Source of the DNA: Thermodesulfovibrionales bacterium
Lineage (GTDB): Bacteria > Nitrospirota > Thermodesulfovibrionia > Thermodesulfovibrionales > SM23-35
Length of the DNA: 52,111 nucleotides
Direction: 5' to 3'
NCBI GenBank assembly: GCA_022865525.1
Contig: JALHSV010000264.1
Coordinates: 1-52,111, forward strand
A model generated the notes under the pieces. The model was given only the letters and a program-made list of their open reading frames with translations, had not been told where the DNA came from and ran no database searches. Made by a program: the position numbers and the translations under genes. How positions within the stretch are numbered: the first letter of the stretch is position 1; each line of letters begins with the position of its first letter. Below, piece by piece: positions 1,079-13,882 of this stretch.

Positions 1079-1329
1079 AGACCCATACATTCAACGGCAG
1101 GAAGTACAGGATAGACATTAAGGACTATCACATTGACGGTGTGTGTGACCAGTACAAACCTGAGCGGATGATTATGTTATGTGCAGACCTGAAAACCAGA
1201 ACGGGCCTGATAACCGCCATACACGAAGCCCTGCACGCCGAGAACTGGTGCAAGGACGAAGGTACAGTAGATAACGTAAGCAAGGAAATAGGGACGTTTT
1301 TATGGAGACTGGGATACAGGATTAGATGA
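1066..1329 (+). CDS. small protein with HExxH motif (possible Zn-metallopeptidase-like)
   Basis: 87 aa containing AIHEALHAENW. Overlaps neighbouring ORFs by a few nt, consistent with operon packing. Confidence 0.5.
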   Translation: MRKLKTHTFNGRKYRIDIKDYHIDGVCDQYKPERMIMLCADLKTRTGLITAIHEALHAENWCKDEGTVDNVSKEIGTFLWRLGYRIR

Positions 1330-1526
1330 CCTATAAATTCCAATGCACCTGCGGCAAACAAGGGGCGGTAGATGTAGGCACTACCGTCCCAGATGACGAC
1401 AATAGATACCCATGTTGGGACTGCTGGAAGAGGTATCCGTATTATCTAAAACATAAGGAGAGAAATGAAGACATCGGCAGTAGCAAACGACTTCCACTTC
1501 ACGTTCCACGAACCGAAGGCGGTTAG
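1326..1526 (+). CDS. small Cys-rich protein
   Basis: 66 aa with CTCG and CWDCW motifs. ATGA coupling at the start. The 3' end overlaps the next gene by 62 nt, so the extent is uncertain. Confidence 0.4.
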   Translation: MTYKFQCTCGKQGAVDVGTTVPDDDNRYPCWDCWKRYPYYLKHKERNEDIGSSKRLPLHVPRTEGG

Positions 1527-2190
1527 GCTATTTCTGGGCTTTGTGAAGGAACACCAGCCAAGGCAGGTTATTATCAATGGTGACCTCTGTGATTTCTATA
1601 AGATAAGCAAGTTTGATAAAGACCCGAACCGCATTGAGTCCCTACAAATAGAGATAGACGCTGCTTCGGACTTTTTAGGAGAACTAAGGGATGCCGCTAC
1701 TGGGGCTGATGTCATCTTTGATGAGGGCAACCACGAACACAGACTCAGGAAGTACCTATGGCGCAAGGCTGAGGCTCTCGCAAGCCTGAAGTGCCTTGAA
1801 CTGCCAAAGCTGTTAAAGTTAGACAAGTACCACATCAAGCATGTCCCTTACGGTGAGGGCGTTCAGGTAGGCAAGATATTCGTCTATCACGGCACAATAG
1901 TCAGGCAGGACTCCTCTTATACTGCTAAGGCTGAGTTCCTGAAGAATGGCTGCTCAGGGATGTCAGGACACACCCACAGGGACGGTAAGTACGTCAAAAG
2001 GAATAGGGGCGGTCAGTTTGCATGGTGGGAGAATTTTTGCATGTGCAAATTAGACCCCGAATACGTCGATGGCATAGTCAACTGGAGTCAGGGCTTCAGC
2101 CTAATCCACTCAGTAGGCTCAAAGCAATACGTAGAACAAATCCACATTAACAAAGGCTCGTATGTATATGGCGGGCAAATCCATAAATAA
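1465..2190 (+). CDS. calcineurin-like metallophosphoesterase
   Basis: 241 aa. Motifs INGDLCD, DEGNHEHR and GHTHRDG are in canonical order. Strong SD AAGGAGAGAA. Confidence 0.8.
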   Translation: MKTSAVANDFHFTFHEPKAVRLFLGFVKEHQPRQVIINGDLCDFYKISKFDKDPNRIESLQIEIDAASDFLGELRDAATGADVIFDEGNHEHRLRKYLWRKAEALASLKCLELPKLLKLDKYHIKHVPYGEGVQVGKIFVYHGTIVRQDSSYTAKAEFLKNGCSGMSGHTHRDGKYVKRNRGGQFAWWENFCMCKLDPEYVDGIVNWSQGFSLIHSVGSKQYVEQIHINKGSYVYGGQIHK

Positions 2191-2202
2191 AGGAGAACCA
2201 AA

Positions 2203-2721
2203 ATGAAGAAGTACGTTTTAATTGCAGTATTGTTACTAACGTTACTATGCACTGGCTGTATGCCAGCAACGCAGGCCGAGGTAAAGACCCTCACAGGCAA
2301 CGTATCCACCTTATTAGAGGCCGTAGATGCCTTACAGGGTACTACGTCACAGATGGCCGCAGACGGCCTGATTAACAAGGAGAAAGTCGATAAGATAAAT
2401 ACTTCCATCGACAAGGTACAAGAAACAGTCGTAAAGGTAGCTAAGGAGGTCGAGACTGCCCCGGATACAATGACGGCTATAGAAGCGGGATGGGAGGCCA
2501 CAAAGAATATAAATCCGTGGTATGTCTATGGCACTATGGCTATCGGAGTCCTGAAACTACTCCAAAAGAACAAAGAGACTAATAATTCACTCGAAGAAAT
2601 CGTCTTGGGAGTTGCAGACATCGCCAAATCCAATGGAGGATTAACAAAAGAACAGAAGGCGGCATTTAATGCTTCTGAATCTGTCGCAACCCGCAGAAAA
2701 GTAGCAAAGATTCTTGCATAG
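2203..2721 (+). CDS. secreted / lipoprotein-like protein
   Basis: 172 aa. N-terminal MKKYVLIAVLLLTLLCTGC signal/lipobox-like segment. SD AAAGGAGAA. Confidence 0.65.
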   Translation: MKKYVLIAVLLLTLLCTGCMPATQAEVKTLTGNVSTLLEAVDALQGTTSQMAADGLINKEKVDKINTSIDKVQETVVKVAKEVETAPDTMTAIEAGWEATKNINPWYVYGTMAIGVLKLLQKNKETNNSLEEIVLGVADIAKSNGGLTKEQKAAFNASESVATRRKVAKILA

Positions 2722-2753
2722 AAATAACAAACTTATCATTCCTCTCCTCCGAA

Positions 2754-2788
2754 GGGGTGGTGACTTCGCGTCACTGCCCCTTTTTTTT
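2754..2788 (+). terminator. rho-independent terminator ending the early operon
   Basis: 11-bp stem GGGGTGGTGAC/GTCACTGCCCC (two G-U pairs), 5-nt loop, followed by T8. Confidence 0.85.
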
Positions 2789-3026
2789 CGCTTGTAAGTG
2801 TTTGTGGTTACTATACTTGAAAAATACTTGAAAATTCTCTAAAGATTTATCTTCCCAAAGCCGATACATTAGTTATACTTATTAGTGAAGTTACAAGTAA
2901 ATAGAGGACGCAAATGAGACATGCAAAACTATCCAACTTAGAACAACTACCGGAGGCCGGTACGTTCTCCTCCTCAGAAGCGTGTCTCAGCCGGTCTTCG
3001 GTTTTTATCTCTTGAAAGAATATAGA

Positions 3027-3254
3027 ATGAGATACCAATTACATCATCAGCCAAAAGATTACAATCGAAGCGGGGAGACGATATTTATTTCTCAGTCTGA
3101 GGAAATAACTTCCGCTGCCACTTACGACAAATGGCTGGCCGACAACAGGAAAGCCAACCCCCTGCCCGAGGGGTATCAATGGTTAGTATGTAACGAAAAG
3201 TCGGAGTATTTTGAATGTACGTTCAACAATGATAGTTTGGTAGAAAGGAAATAG
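3027..3254 (+). CDS. hypothetical protein (75 aa from first ATG)
   Basis: The track ORF begins at GTG 2982. First ATG is at 3027 with a weak SD, so the start is uncertain. Confidence 0.45.
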   Translation: MRYQLHHQPKDYNRSGETIFISQSEEITSAATYDKWLADNRKANPLPEGYQWLVCNEKSEYFECTFNNDSLVERK

Positions 3255-3256
3255 AG

Positions 3257-3994
3257 ATGGACAATGAACTACAAACAATCGAAAATAGCATAAGGCATTG
3301 GACATTTATGGCCGAGACGGGAACTCGCGATAAGCGTGATTACCCGCCCATAAGCAAAGCCGACATACTTGAAAATTGCTACCTTTGCGAGTATAGTTGC
3401 GAGATAACCGGAGAGGCCGCAGTTCGTCCAGACCATCACAGGTGCCAACCCTGTCCGTATTTCAAAAAGTACGGATTCTGTAACGACACAGGCAAGCCTT
3501 TTAATAAGTGGAGCGAATCTACATCCGATACCGACCGCCAAAAGCACGCAAATGCCTTTGTCGAGCAACTCAAAGCCTTGGTATGGGAAGTGAGCAAAGA
3601 CGAAGTGAGGAAAGAGGCCGCCGAGGCTGAGAAGCCGAAGCTGAAACTGAAAGATTGGGATTACGGGAATAATATCGCAAAATGTCCGTACATTGTTATA
3701 AATGGGAAAATTATGTGGGTGAATGAGGGTGAATTTACTGACAGCTTCAAGCCTACAGACTCGGCATTTACCGATACTTATCTGGGTCATAATCTTGCCA
3801 AAGACCTCAAAGCCCTTGGCAAGCCGCTGGAAACCTTTACAATAGATACGGGCGGAAATAGAGTTAAAGGATACATTGCTAAAAGCGGGAAGATATGTTT
3901 AGCATCCTACGGAGGTTTTATGGACATTGAGGTCGCCGAAGAAATCAGTATGAACCTCCGCCGCTTAATCCACGCGGCCAAGGCCAGGTTGTAG
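3257..3994 (+). CDS. hypothetical protein with Cys-rich N-terminal domain
   Basis: 245 aa with CYLCEYSC...CQPCP...C. SD AAAGGAAA. No family recognised. Confidence 0.65.
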   Translation: MDNELQTIENSIRHWTFMAETGTRDKRDYPPISKADILENCYLCEYSCEITGEAAVRPDHHRCQPCPYFKKYGFCNDTGKPFNKWSESTSDTDRQKHANAFVEQLKALVWEVSKDEVRKEAAEAEKPKLKLKDWDYGNNIAKCPYIVINGKIMWVNEGEFTDSFKPTDSAFTDTYLGHNLAKDLKALGKPLETFTIDTGGNRVKGYIAKSGKICLASYGGFMDIEVAEEISMNLRRLIHAAKARL

Positions 3995-4024
3995 GCAGTA
4001 CCGCTCTTTTACAAATGAATATCG

Positions 4025-4136
4025 GACTGGCGGCGGCGAAGTGGAAGAAAATGTCTGGTAGTAGATGAACAGACGGGGCCATGCAGGTGAACGGTGGGGA
4101 ATCCTGCCCGCCAGTCTTTGAACCACTGGGGCGGGC
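4025..4136 (+). ncRNA. structured non-coding segment with mutually exclusive helices
   Basis: GACTGGCGG (4025-4033) pairs with CCGCCAGTC (4108-4116). Alternatively, GCCCGCCAGT (4106-4115) pairs with ACTGG-gg-CGGGC (4125-4136), followed by a T/C-rich tract. Confidence 0.35.
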
Positions 4137-4180
4137 TTCCTCCTTTCTATAGCTAATTTTTCATAGCCTGCCCCAATTAT

Positions 4181-4264
4181 GGCCGAGTAGCTTAAAGGGC
4201 AAAGCGTGGGGCGGCTGCCAGAAAACTCGACACCAAGTTGCAGGTTCAAATCCTGCCTCGGCCA
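4181..4264 (+). tRNA. tRNA-like element with non-canonical anticodon arm (pseudo-tRNA or tRNA mimic)
   Basis: Three arms are perfect. They are the acceptor stem GGCCGAG/CTCGGCC plus discriminator A, the D arm GCTT-AAAGGGCA-AAGC, and the T arm GCAGG-TTCAAAT-CCTGC. The 33 nt at 4207-4239 do not give a 5-bp stem with a 7-nt loop. The best fold is TGGGG/CACCA (4 of 5 pairs) around a 19-nt loop, so no anticodon can be assigned. Confidence 0.5.
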
Positions 4265-4367
4265 ATGCGATTAACGACGTTAAAAAATGAGGGTAGAGTA
4301 TGCTGGTGTAATCTATCTCTGTCGAATATCGCAGCCAGTCCCGTACGCGGGGTCACAAGGCGCGACA

Positions 4368-4392
4368 GCTCGGAGAGAACGAGCATTTTTTT
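4368..4392 (+). terminator. rho-independent terminator downstream of the tRNA-like element
   Basis: GCTCG-gagagaa-CGAGC hairpin followed by ATTTTTTT. Confidence 0.7.
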
Positions 4393-4432
4393 AACTAAAG
4401 TAGGTAACAGTTTAAGACGAAAGGAGAGTATT

Positions 4433-4711
4433 ATGGCAAAAAAAACATTACCTTCACCTTTGTGTGTAGATATTCGAGAGGCGAAACCCAATAAGCTGTT
4501 TACTGAAGAGCAAAGGGAATTAGTACGTTTTCTTGTTTATAATAAAAAAGTACATTGTCGGCGCTGCAACCGCAAGGTGAAAATAATGTGGACTATGCTC
4601 TGTGAATTTTATGCAATGAATATGGGGCAACATTCAATGGATAAAGGTGAAAAATATATGCCTCTAACGCCGGTTTGTAGTGAACATCCATTAAAGCCGG
4701 GCATTGATTAA
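4433..4711 (+). CDS. hypothetical zinc-ribbon-like protein (92 aa)
   Basis: ATG at 4433 with SD AAGGAGAG. Contains HCRRCNRK and CSEH. The 5' part of track ORF 4238-4711 crosses the tRNA-like element and the terminator, so it is rejected. Confidence 0.6.
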   Translation: MAKKTLPSPLCVDIREAKPNKLFTEEQRELVRFLVYNKKVHCRRCNRKVKIMWTMLCEFYAMNMGQHSMDKGEKYMPLTPVCSEHPLKPGID

Positions 4712-4743: not shown

Positions 4744-5070
4744 ATGAACAATACGAAAAAGACAATCGAGTATGTGAACAAAACAAAGCAGGATGCAATG
4801 AGATTTCTGGCCGAGGCACAGGAAGATGTGGCTCTGTGGACGATGGTAGTCAATGAATGTGATGAGGACATCAGAGATGCCAGTAATCGCAAGCCCATGT
4901 ACGGCAAGGCCAGATTGAAGGTCATGGCTGCGATAGCCCTGATAATCCTGATGGTGGCGTTGTTCGGCTGTCGCTCGACTATCACTGGTTGTGGTATGAT
5001 ATTACAGGGCGGGGCGCATATAGTTAAAGGCACGGGAGATTATCTCGTCGCAGAAGGAACGGAGAAATAG
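4744..5070 (+). CDS. membrane protein (one TM helix)
   Basis: 108 aa with hydrophobic MAAIALIILMVALFGC segment. SD GAGAGGAAA. Confidence 0.6.
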   Translation: MNNTKKTIEYVNKTKQDAMRFLAEAQEDVALWTMVVNECDEDIRDASNRKPMYGKARLKVMAAIALIILMVALFGCRSTITGCGMILQGGAHIVKGTGDYLVAEGTEK

Positions 5071-5291: not shown

Positions 5292-5308
5292 GAAATAGAG
5301 TACGGACG

Positions 5309-5558
5309 GGCGGTGGTCGATAGGCAGGGATAGGCCAAACTGAAGATTAACCTCATCGAAAATGAGACTTTGATTGACGTAAAGTAAACAGTGAATTACG
5401 GATTTCCACCGCCTTTATATAAACAAACGGGCGGGAAGGCATTTATGAAACTATAACCTAAAAGCATCAAGGATGCAGAAAATGCTTACACAATCCCTCG
5501 ATTTTCAGGCAGAGTTAATTGGGGAAGGTTAGAAACGTAAAAACGTGGCTTTCCCGCC
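5309..5558 (+). ncRNA. two-domain structured leader / ncRNA candidate
   Basis: Long-range helix GGCGGTGG (5309-5316) / CCACCGCC (5406-5413). Second helix GGCGGGAAGGC (5430-5440) / GCTTTCCCGCC (5548-5558; 11 bp, one G-U). Lies in a 288-nt ORF-free gap ending at the SD of the 5580 gene. Confidence 0.35.
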
Positions 5559-6591: not shown

Positions 6592-6873
6592 ATGGAACAT
6601 ACAAAGTTAAAAATTAGAGACGAAATAGAACCTACCAGTTTTTATGCTATTGTTGACGAGGAAACAGATGGAAAGAAGATTTACGAAGAAGTGTCTTCTC
6701 TCTTAATGGCCCTCCGCCTCGTCAAGTGCTGGAACGGCTGGGACGAGCTTGTGGAGGCAGGGAACGAGTTTATCAAGACGTTTACCCCTCACGATATAAG
6801 GTCTGAATGTTTCCGAGCATATACTAAATTATTAAAGCTTCTCGCCGCAGAGAGTAAAGAGGTGAAAGAATGA
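6592..6873 (+). CDS. small protein, paralog family member 3
   Basis: 93 aa. FIKTFTPHDIRSECFRAYTKLLKLL box shared with the 5920 ORF. Confidence 0.65.
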   Translation: MEHTKLKIRDEIEPTSFYAIVDEETDGKKIYEEVSSLLMALRLVKCWNGWDELVEAGNEFIKTFTPHDIRSECFRAYTKLLKLLAAESKEVKE

Positions 6874-7238: not shown

Positions 7239-7724
7239 ATGAAGATTGAACAATTACTAATTCAACCGCACGGCACAAAGATAGGCGGCTTTAATCTTTG
7301 CGTTAAGACATTTAAGAAAACGTGGCAGGTCGGCGAGACTCATTGGCAACAGGTTATTTGCATGGACGAAACCGGTGAAATACCTGTAGATGTCAAGTTA
7401 GGCAACAAATACAATCCTTTGCGAGGCCGTACAACAGAATTAGATGTAATCGTAGCCGAAGTCAGAGACGCCGAGTACCTTAATAAGCCCCGCAAGATAC
7501 TTGTAGTTGACCAGTTTACTATACCTACACAGATGATTGCCGATTACTACGCCGAACCTGACCAGGCATACCAGGCCAATATGAAAGAAATCAGGGGCAA
7601 GATAAGGCACGGTCTTATTTGCAGCGACAGAAGTGCGGGGTATAGAGTTACTGGTAAAAAAGAAGTAGAAAATTACCAGTTGGAAATAGCTTTTTGGGCA
7701 GAGTTTATTATGACTGGAGAATGA
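7239..7724 (+). CDS. hypothetical protein (161 aa)
   Basis: Strong SD GAAGGAGAAG. No family recognised. Confidence 0.65.
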   Translation: MKIEQLLIQPHGTKIGGFNLCVKTFKKTWQVGETHWQQVICMDETGEIPVDVKLGNKYNPLRGRTTELDVIVAEVRDAEYLNKPRKILVVDQFTIPTQMIADYYAEPDQAYQANMKEIRGKIRHGLICSDRSAGYRVTGKKEVENYQLEIAFWAEFIMTGE

Positions 7725-13119: not shown

Positions 13120-13322
13120 CAGCAAAGACGCGAATAATTGAATTGCATAGATATTATAGCAAAGGACGATGTAAATTGTCAGGGAAATATTGGGCTACGG
13201 AATTTTGTTGGGATGGCTTTAAGCGGCTCAATCCTGCAATCTGCAAAGGCCTGCGTAAAGGCAAGAAGCGCATGCTCAAGCGTACACAACTTAAAAATGG
13301 ATTCAAACTGGAGACAAAATGA
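13116..13322 (+). CDS. basic small protein (68 aa)
   Basis: ATGA coupling at both ends. Confidence 0.55.
   Translation: MTAKTRIIELHRYYSKGRCKLSGKYWATEFCWDGFKRLNPAICKGLRKGKKRMLKRTQLKNGFKLETK
13310..13322 (+). repeat. GGAGACAAAATGA junction, copy 3
   Basis: See 12892-12904. Confidence 0.85.
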
Positions 13323-13882
13323 CCGAAAAAGAAAAACAGACTAAAGCAGGATTAAATAATGCGTTAAAGGCTCATTATGATAATGACTGGGCGGGAACTT
13401 TCTGGGCTATAAGTAAGGCGATAACCCTGCTCGAAGAGCCTGCCGAGAAGCCGTTTGAGCCAGAGCGCAATGAAGAATTTAAGCGAAAAGAGGGAAAACA
13501 TAAATTGGTTTACGATAAAAAGCTACGAACAATAGTAGGTTACTGTAAAACACACAAGGTATATTATCAACCAAGCGGTAATTGTTATAAGTGTTGTCCT
13601 GAGCCTGCCGAGAAGCCGGAGAGCGAGTCAAACACAGATTTTATAGATGGAGCAAGAGCACTATTACGGCAAGGAGCAGATGACCGACAATGGGCGTTTG
13701 CAACACTTCTTAGAAAAGCCTGCGACCGCCTCGAAGAACTCAAAGACAGAGAAGAACAAATTCTGGCTAAAGCGTCAGCCGCCACCAAGCGGGCAGAGCA
13801 GGCAGAGGCCAAACTCGAAGGGTTATTGAAAGAGAACTCAGAACTGCGTAAAAGGCAACGACAACCTGACCCATATTCCTGA
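13319..13882 (+). CDS. hypothetical coiled-coil protein (187 aa)
   Basis: Last gene of the + strand block before the convergent terminator region. Confidence 0.6.
   Translation: MTEKEKQTKAGLNNALKAHYDNDWAGTFWAISKAITLLEEPAEKPFEPERNEEFKRKEGKHKLVYDKKLRTIVGYCKTHKVYYQPSGNCYKCCPEPAEKPESESNTDFIDGARALLRQGADDRQWAFATLLRKACDRLEELKDREEQILAKASAATKRAEQAEAKLEGLLKENSELRKRQRQPDPYS

Follow-up and report, generated by a model that had tools for sequence, protein, structure and literature searches.

The stretch of DNA analyzed here (the window, 52,111 nucleotides [nt]) is contig JALHSV010000264.1 (C82) of a 683-contig assembly of a Thermodesulfovibrionales bacterium (3 Mb in total) and represents a 52-kb phage genome. 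Its genes include those for the terminase, portal, capsid, a methyltransferase, and an HNH protein; nearly all of them are located on the + strand, with a coding density of 94% and the standard genetic code, which ruled out a recoded genome requiring a suppressor tRNA. None of the 36 proteins scanned was a tRNA-related enzyme. In the early region, between two genes of unknown function (3257-3994 and 4433-4711), lies a segment that contains a tRNA-shaped RNA of 84 nt (4181-4264), a boxA-like motif upstream of it (4003-4014), and a terminator-like hairpin downstream (from 4368), all on the + strand, as are the other features of the segment described below. We refer to this segment (3995-4432) as the cassette. 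The gap had initially been described as free of open reading frames (ORFs), and this was borne out. The sole + strand ORF across it (4238-4711, TTG start) is merely an in-frame extension of the gene starting at 4433, and a 2-nt insertion or deletion in the trailer of a second copy of the cassette (see below) falls inside that ORF, indicating that the gap upstream of 4433 is noncoding.

The tRNA shape of the element was recognized by sequence reading, by ARAGORN (as “tRNA-???”), and by the Rfam tRNA model RF00005, which matched 4181-4264 on the + strand with 52.4 bits (E = 1.8e-08 over the whole window; the gathering cutoff is 29 bits). This model was the sole Rfam family over threshold in the window. 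In agreement with the initial annotation, pairing is perfect in the acceptor, D, and T arms, all 19 arm pairs being of the Watson-Crick type. The acceptor stem has 7 bp (4181-4187/4257-4263, GGCCGAG/CUCGGCC), the D arm (4190-4205, GCUU-AAAGGGCA-AAGC) has the 4-bp stem and 8-nt loop of the class I type, and the T arm (4240-4256) reads GCAGG-UUCAAAU-CCUGC. The pair probabilities of the acceptor stem and the T arm in the local fold were at least 0.97. The set of elbow nucleotides is also complete (U8, A14, G18 and G19, A21, G53:C61, U54, U55 and C56, and A58, in addition to A9). The discriminator is an A (A73, A4264), a U is found at position -1, and CCA is not encoded, while most host tRNAs encode it. 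A cmscan of 3950-4450 with E values of up to 10 gave, besides the tRNA model, chance-level matches only, so that bacterial Y RNA (YrlA) and other cataloged RNAs were discarded for lack of a model match in that interval. Transfer-messenger RNA was also discarded, given that 84 nt is too short and that ARAGORN places this RNA only on contig C199 of the host.

Where a tRNA carries its anticodon and variable arms, the element has a weakly structured interior of 33 nt (4207-4239), measured between G26 and the T stem, i.e., 12 nt in excess of the ca. 21 nt of a class I tRNA. The claim that this section cannot form the canonical arm was confirmed, as was its length: neither the sequence itself nor Rfam, folding, or ARAGORN placed in the interior an arm with a 5-bp stem, a loop of 7 nt containing U33, and an anticodon that could be read. 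In the RF00005 alignment only three outer pairs (UGG/CCA) were formed, and a 23-nt insert was skipped where the model has 11 nt. When the middle 34 nt was folded with the arms constrained, the minimum free energy (MFE) was -4.0 kcal/mol, compared to a mean of -6.7 kcal/mol for shuffled sequences, 89.5% of which folded at least as well. ARAGORN reported a 2-nt anticodon for the element and, in intron mode, one solution only, “Ser-GCU,” with G33, a mismatched stem, and a body devoid of the serine variable arm. The heptamer CUGCCAG (4215-4221) resembles the anticodon loop of a Gly-GCC tRNA, with the flanking stem absent, and the best extended arm around it (UGGGG-CGG/UCG-A-CACCA) needs a G·A mismatch and a bulge and was absent from the MFE and the best suboptimal folds. 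We also rejected an intron-containing tRNA of the archaeal or group I type, given the G33 solution, the lack of a bulge-helix-bulge, and the fact that 12 nt cannot hold a group I core. A covariance model match to a normal tRNA with a defined anticodon, which the initial annotation had named as the result that would change its view, did not arise with either Rfam or ARAGORN, since the model matches only by skipping the anticodon region. Judged by its predicted structure, this tRNA-shaped element is not capable of ordinary decoding.

A second copy of the cassette was found in the second largest contig of the assembly (C391, 42 kb), which belongs to another phage. The two phages share almost no proteins, and the likeness between their DNAs is restricted to short patches, the longest of which is 4117-4444. 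Around the cassette, 41 of 45 bases are identical between 3995-4039 and C391 33486-33441, with unrelated genes upstream, and 162 of the 170 aligned positions (95%) between 4265-4432 and its counterpart are identical, with no differences from ca. 4320 to 4423. Of the cassette, C391 keeps as islands the patch following the upstream stop codon, the strands of two leader helices (a:b and c:d, see below), the acceptor stem, the T arm, the trailer, and the terminator. The four differences between 4266 and 4392 are all in unpaired columns of the consensus fold. Thus, absence of conservation, which would have spoken against the region being functional, was not what we observed. Several other patches with 90 to 96% identity between the two contigs (2839-3011, 4891-4941, 5292-5420, 6709-6873, and 13310-13441) are located at or near gene boundaries and look like regulatory or boundary cassettes moving between unrelated phages of one host.

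The tRNA-like body of the C391 copy is 27 nt longer and cannot be aligned to the interior of the window element (19% of shuffles scored as high), and homology between the two interiors was accordingly dismissed as not significant. Its arms do correspond: the D-stem pair 12:23 changes from U:A in the window to G:C in C391, a compensatory replacement, and the T-stem pair 50:64 changes from C:G to U:G. Neither ARAGORN nor the Rfam tRNA model matched the C391 copy, and its interior is predicted to fold as a long hairpin instead of an anticodon arm. On this folding, the C391 copy is non-decoding as well. Given that the near-identical flanks point to recent exchange, the intact arms of the window element alone are no proof of purifying selection. 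A stronger argument for selection comes from the presence of two different bodies at one conserved locus, both without an anticodon arm and both keeping the pairing of the D, T, and acceptor stems.

The boxA-like motif (GCUCUUUUACAA, 4003-4014) is located in the conserved patch (3995-4039) that follows directly the stop codon of gene 3257-3994 and that also holds the 5′ strand of helix a:b. It belongs to the type of NusB/NusE loading site found in rRNA operons and nut antitermination and is the only match in the window to the pattern GYTCTTTNAMAA. The homologous site in C391 (33466-33477, - strand) is GCTCTTTGAAAA (RNA form, GCUCUUUGAAAA), identical at 12 of 12 positions to the boxA in the rRNA operon (rrn) leader of a genome of the same family (G004). 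We compared the rrn leaders and spacers of three genomes of this family. The leaders have G[CT]TCTTTGAAAA (RNA, G[CU]UCUUUGAAAA), while the spacers between the 16S and 23S rRNA genes have GTTCTTTGACAA (RNA, GUUCUUUGACAA), and the motif of the window (GCTCTTTTACAA) is closest to the spacer type. The two phage variants mirror the leader type (GAAAA) and the spacer type (GACAA) of the host family. In the binned host itself, GTTCTTTGAAAA appears at two contig ends (C569:12781-12792 and C146:166-177), followed by the 5′ end of the 16S rRNA, i.e., where the rRNA failed to assemble. With respect to the published gammaproteobacterial consensus, GYTCTTTAANA (PMC5725501), each phage copy has one mismatch.

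A loose boxA pattern gave 16 matches on both strands of the 3-Mb assembly (ca. 1 per 370 kb of strand), so that the expectation for the two cassettes taken together is ca. 0.003; both have one, at the homologous position. The motif is on the transcribed strand, upstream of an untranslated RNA and a terminator, and the binned host encodes both Rho and NusB. Binding of NusB/NusE to 4003-4014 and the resulting suppression of termination are putative. The similarity to the host rrn is limited to boxA, and a captured fragment of that operon was discarded. A 9-mer (CUGGCGGCG, 4026-4034) located 12 nt past the motif also follows the boxA of the host rrn, in the 5′ end of the 16S rRNA (GAACGCUGGCGGCGUGCC). 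The two strands of the assembly (3 Mb) contain 21 copies of it; its presence here may be fortuitous, or it may partly mimic the rrn leader and 16S start.

Between boxA and the tRNA-shaped element, the initial annotation had described two helices competing for the same strand. Both exist. Helix a:b (4025-4033, GACUGGCGG, with 4108-4116, CCGCCAGUC) is a perfect 9-bp pairing that closes a 74-nt variable domain, is present in the MFE fold, and has both strands kept in C391 around an insert that cannot be aligned. The alternative hairpin b:c (4106-4115/4125-4136; GCCCGCCAGU/ACUGGGGCGGGC, followed by UUCCUCCUUUCU) has 10 bp and a 2-nt bulge and competes with both a:b and a further hairpin, c:d. Its strands are 130 nt apart in C391, so it is not conserved as a local hairpin. 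What did not hold up is their distinctiveness, as a perfect helix of at least 9 bp was found in 6% of the dinucleotide shuffles of 3995-4180, whose fold z-score was -0.02; by themselves, helices a:b and b:c are not beyond chance. Hairpin c:d (4127-4137/4165-4175), which had gone unreported, is stronger than either, with an 11-bp stem, a 27-nt loop, and pair probabilities of 0.86 to 1.0 in the local fold. It ends 5 nt before the 5′ end of the tRNA-like element, and both of its stem strands are identical in C391, with the differences confined to the loop. The octamer TGGGGCRG is found at 4127 (+), 4168 (-), and 4207 (+), three of its eight sites in the window within 88 bp and 40 nt apart, the third being inside the tRNA-like interior; the middle one can pair with either neighbor and pairs with the upstream one in local folds.

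Downstream of the element, a 103-nt trailer (4265-4367) conserved with C391 has predicted helices at 4266-4271/4328-4333 and 4275-4279/4320-4324 and a predicted hairpin, CCCG-UACG-CGGG, at 4340-4351; its fold z-score was -0.75. It is followed by the terminator-like hairpin detected by a consensus scan (4368-4384, GCUCG-GAGAGAA-CGAGC, then AUUUUUUU, with the T-run reaching 4392). This hairpin is identical in C391, and it had been taken as a clean terminator closing the unit. The hairpin and the T-run are there; the clean closure is not, since the stem is only 5 bp long, which makes the terminator probably leaky, and the next gene (4433-4711; Shine-Dalgarno sequence AAGGAG at 4421-4426, ATG at 4433) has no promoter of its own. 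Only 40 nt separate the end of the T-run from the ATG, and no promoter-like site was predicted between the terminator and this start codon. With no room for a promoter in that gap, expression of the gene at 4433 needs read-through of the terminator. Along similar lines, a consensus scan and inspection revealed no sigma-70-type promoter in 3995-4180. Given this, together with the position of boxA right after a stop codon, the weak terminator, and the short distance to the next ATG, the proposal of a dedicated noncoding transcript was not supported in that form, and 3995-4432 is better read as a putative Nus-protected untranslated segment of the early operon than as a free-standing gene.

We looked for close relatives of the cassette in several collections and found none in INPHARED phages (blastn), in the GTDB genomes of the host's family and order, in IMG/VR (exact patterns of the trailer, leader, and D arm), or with a leader-plus-acceptor pattern in metagenomes and a trailer pattern in genome contigs. 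Searches with the neighboring proteins (245 and 108 amino acids) and with the translation of an antisense ORF were equally negative for such a relative. Relatives of the terminase were limited to one 23-kb contig without the early region. Among relatives of the phosphoesterase, one contig (L093, JAANSW010673593.1) ends before the cassette, and the others are devoid of it. This 7.5-kb contig is the nearest early-region relative found: it is syntenic with window positions 1300-3400, its phosphoesterase is 75% identical, and it has the terminator region in common, ending just before the start of the cassette.

When metagenome contigs were scanned with the T arm and the 3′ acceptor strand as a combined pattern, 62 loci were retrieved, which provide context only, as none is homologous to the window interior. 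They include genuine tRNA-Leu(UAA) genes with the acceptor stem, T stem, and A73 of the window (L023 and L014), tRNAs for Phe, Asn, and Cys, and at least 10 distinct oversize RNAs (95 to 195 nt) with a Leu-type D arm and without a normal anticodon arm. The contig of L023 also encodes a homolog (40% identical) of window gene 7239-7724; it lies downstream of the tRNA at a distance of ca. 2.4 kb, compared to 3.0 kb for the gene in the window. The window element may thus descend from a phage tRNA-Leu locus, with the reservation that its D arm is not of the Leu type (3-bp stem, loop of ca. 11 nt, GUGGCGRAAYUGG), and only the acceptor/T-arm half is held in common with the oversize Leu group. No conserved partner gene was found beside the tRNA-like elements, and none of the other oversize loci had a boxA upstream.

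Some of these loci deserve mention on their own account. Four (L041, L045, L056, and L062), from related phages with neighboring genes in common, are oversize tRNA-Leu-like genes of 141 to 195 nt with a D-loop hairpin of 45 to 60 nt (GGCGGAAYUGGCAAGC...GCUUGCCAUUGGUAGACGC), in which the anticodon/variable region is also largely replaced. Another (L024, Ga0180433_10418050) is a tRNA of 75 nt that combines a Leu-type D arm, A73, and the anticodon CAA with a variable loop of only 5 nt; for a leucine-type tRNA of bacteria or phages, the lack of the long variable arm is unusual. The enlarged loop of L060 and L083 was considered as a parallel to the window interior and rejected, as these are archaeal tRNA-Asn genes (from a DPANN-type metagenome-assembled genome) with an ordinary intron of ca. 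16 nt. Intron-less Asn-GUU genes with the same arms are present as well (L012 and L081). Both sorts of Asn gene match the phage element exactly in the acceptor and T stems and over most of the T loop, evidently by chance.

Taking all of this together, we consider it probable, with modest confidence, that the element is a functional non-decoding tRNA mimic inside a boxA-led cassette of the early operon, from which RNase P and RNase Z would release it. The cassette would be transcribed from an upstream early promoter, and boxA would load NusB/NusE, making the polymerase resistant to Rho over the ca. 440 untranslated bases, with some transcripts passing the weak terminator into the gene at 4433. 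RNase P (at U-1/G+1), RNase Z, and the CCA-adding enzyme, the CCA not being encoded, would then produce the excised tRNA-shaped domain, and the excision would also split the upstream mRNA from the trailer and downstream mRNA. The product would be a stable tRNA look-alike unable to pair with codons. Its acceptor/T-arm top half and elbow would be the active parts, possibly in trans, serving as ligand or decoy of a host or defense factor that recognizes tRNAs from the top-half side. A candidate target is leucyl-tRNA synthetase (LeuRS), given that a genuine phage tRNA-Leu has the same acceptor stem, T stem, and discriminator (with one base different in the T loop); toxins aimed at the acceptor end are other candidates. 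The role may be that of a decoy or ligand or mainly a cis-acting one in processing.

Several observations weigh against a functional mimic of this kind. The interior is unusually unstructured for a selected RNA domain, and the fold z-scores of the leader and trailer are near zero (-0.02 and -0.75). Between the two copies compared, we found no covariation in leader or trailer pairs, and only these two copies, with recently exchanged flanks, were present in all the collections searched. No partner protein common to both phages is encoded beside the cassette, and a search for an antisense target of the interior in host and phage gave a best match of 15 nt that was equaled by 3 of 30 shuffles. The link to leucine is only a lead, since the same top half is found on tRNAs for Phe, Asn, and Cys. 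As for antitermination, the window boxA differs from the host leader type at 2 of 12 positions, and Nus/boxA complexes are known mainly for countering Rho, not intrinsic terminators.

Some of these points would also be expected if the element were a recently inactivated phage tRNA gene, in which an insertion or rearrangement in the anticodon region had started a decay too recent for the arms to be lost. The unstructured interior, the flanks 95 to 100% identical to C391 (implying a recent origin and little time for decay), and the absence of close relatives that keep the window interior are all compatible with this scenario. Nevertheless, all arm pairs and all the tertiary nucleotides are intact, many of the environmental sequences related to this top half are oversize and non-decoding, and C391 has a different non-decoding body with the arm pairing kept by compensatory change. 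That two genes should have died independently at one conserved locus is less likely than selection for a non-decoding state, and we regard inactivation as unlikely, if still worth keeping in mind. We give about the same weight to the element being a purely cis-acting cleavage site for RNase P and RNase Z (tRNA punctuation) that separates mRNAs, the excised RNA itself being without function. Its position between two coding blocks of one operon, without its own promoter, would suit this role, as would a body that is freely exchangeable while arms and flanks are kept and the failure to find a partner protein or antisense target. However, a minimal substrate of these enzymes consists of the acceptor stem and T arm, while here the D arm and elbow are kept in both copies, with a compensatory change in the D stem, and ca. 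250 nt of further conserved noncoding sequence would be left unexplained.

Far less probable is an element acting at the DNA level, for instance an attachment site mimicking a tRNA gene, an origin of replication, or inverted repeats that bind proteins. The clustering of TGGGGCRG, with three of its eight window sites packed into 88 bp and switching strand from one to the next, would fit, and so would the conserved islands flanking variable inserts, as found at recombination sites. On the other side, no tyrosine integrase (PF00589) was found on C82 or C391 (serine recombinases were not searched for), the 3′ half is common to no host tRNA, TGGGGCRG is not repeated at other control regions, and the orientation of boxA, the cloverleaf with its compensatory changes, and the terminator are strand-specific features of an RNA. 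Hardly credible, in our view, is a decoding tRNA after all, in which either 12 intervening nt are removed or a loop enlarged to 12 nt (CUGCCAGAAAAC, anticodon GCC) is used on an extended stem. It would draw on the Gly-GCC-like heptamer, on the fact that ARAGORN returns a model in intron mode, and on the oversized tRNAs with unexplained inserts of the Lak megaphages (PMC6784885). Yet the heptamer is stemless, and the extended arm, with its G·A mismatch and bulge, lies outside the favored folds. The intron solution has G33, assigns a Ser anticodon to a body in which the Ser variable arm is missing, contains no bulge-helix-bulge, and offers 12 nt, too short for self-splicing. In addition, the sole similar insert found (L060/L083) is archaeal, and the phage has the standard code and a normal coding density.

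In order to put the proposed non-decoding mimic into perspective, we compared it with known systems. With respect to the canonical phage tRNA-Leu (acceptor GGCCGAG, A73, and T arm GCAGG-UUCRAAU-CCUGC in L023 and L014), the window element has the same acceptor stem, T stem, and discriminator, with a T loop one base off, but it lacks the anticodon stem-loop, has a 4-bp class I D arm, and has no encoded CCA. LeuRS does not read the anticodon, and minimal tRNA-Leu substrates without the anticodon arm exist. In the engineered tRNA scaffolds of Ponchon and Dardel, the top half reportedly provides processing and stability while the anticodon region is replaceable. These are laboratory constructs, though, while the D arm of the window element is not Leu-like and its charging is putative. 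Among natural RNAs, species 1 and species 2 of phage T4 (rnaC and rnaD) are stable small RNAs of unknown function that are coprocessed with the T4 tRNA cluster. Likened by description only, they too are phage encoded, tRNA associated, stable, and non-decoding and are made by the tRNA-processing machinery, as is predicted for the window element; they are found in a tRNA cluster with no known link to boxA, while the window element is boxA led.

The boxA of rRNA operons and of lambdoid nut sites (NusB/NusE/NusA/NusG/SuhB; PMC5725501 and PMC6614797) is comparable in motif and orientation, in being placed where a long untranslated transcript begins, and in having terminators downstream. In the window, the putative signal precedes a tRNA look-alike instead of rRNA, and neither a boxB-like hairpin nor an N-like protein was identified. 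The oversized tRNAs with “enigmatic introns” of Lak megaphages (Devoto et al. 2019, PMC6784885) are also phage borne, unclassifiable by standard finders, and composed of variable bodies on kept arms. They have been read as intron-bearing decoders with assignable anticodons and come in arrays, while the window element has no drawable anticodon arm, an excess of only 12 nt, and stands alone in a boxA-led cassette. No published account of a tRNA look-alike that lacks an anticodon and is tied to boxA was found.

A broader proposal, which we hold to be doubtful and somewhat less likely than an inactivated gene or a simple processing site, is that of a mobile, Nus-protected leader cassette circulating among the phages of this host, with a tRNA top-half scaffold with an exchangeable body as its payload. 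The scaffold would provide processing, CCA addition, and stability, while the body would be the specificity part of a decoy or ligand in conflicts between phage and host or between phages. If true, this would account for unrelated phages with the same flanks and arms and wholly different interiors.

If the RNA were a mere processing site or a dying gene, the finding would be ordinary. Otherwise, its implications concern the reasons why phages carry tRNA genes. The usual explanations are that these genes supply codons or help to escape defenses that cut tRNAs. Phage tRNAs evading anticodon nucleases have been described (PMC10264068, PMC11464382, and PMC11555353). A phage RNA with the elbow and acceptor end entire and the anticodon arm missing fits neither explanation, and the element would point to functions that need the top half of a tRNA alone. 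The boxA offers a testable handle on the transcription of a long untranslated stretch within an operon, in a nonlambdoid phage that has apparently borrowed the rRNA antitermination signal of its host. Finally, the exchange of bodies between unrelated phages suggests a rapid diversification, typical of conflict systems.

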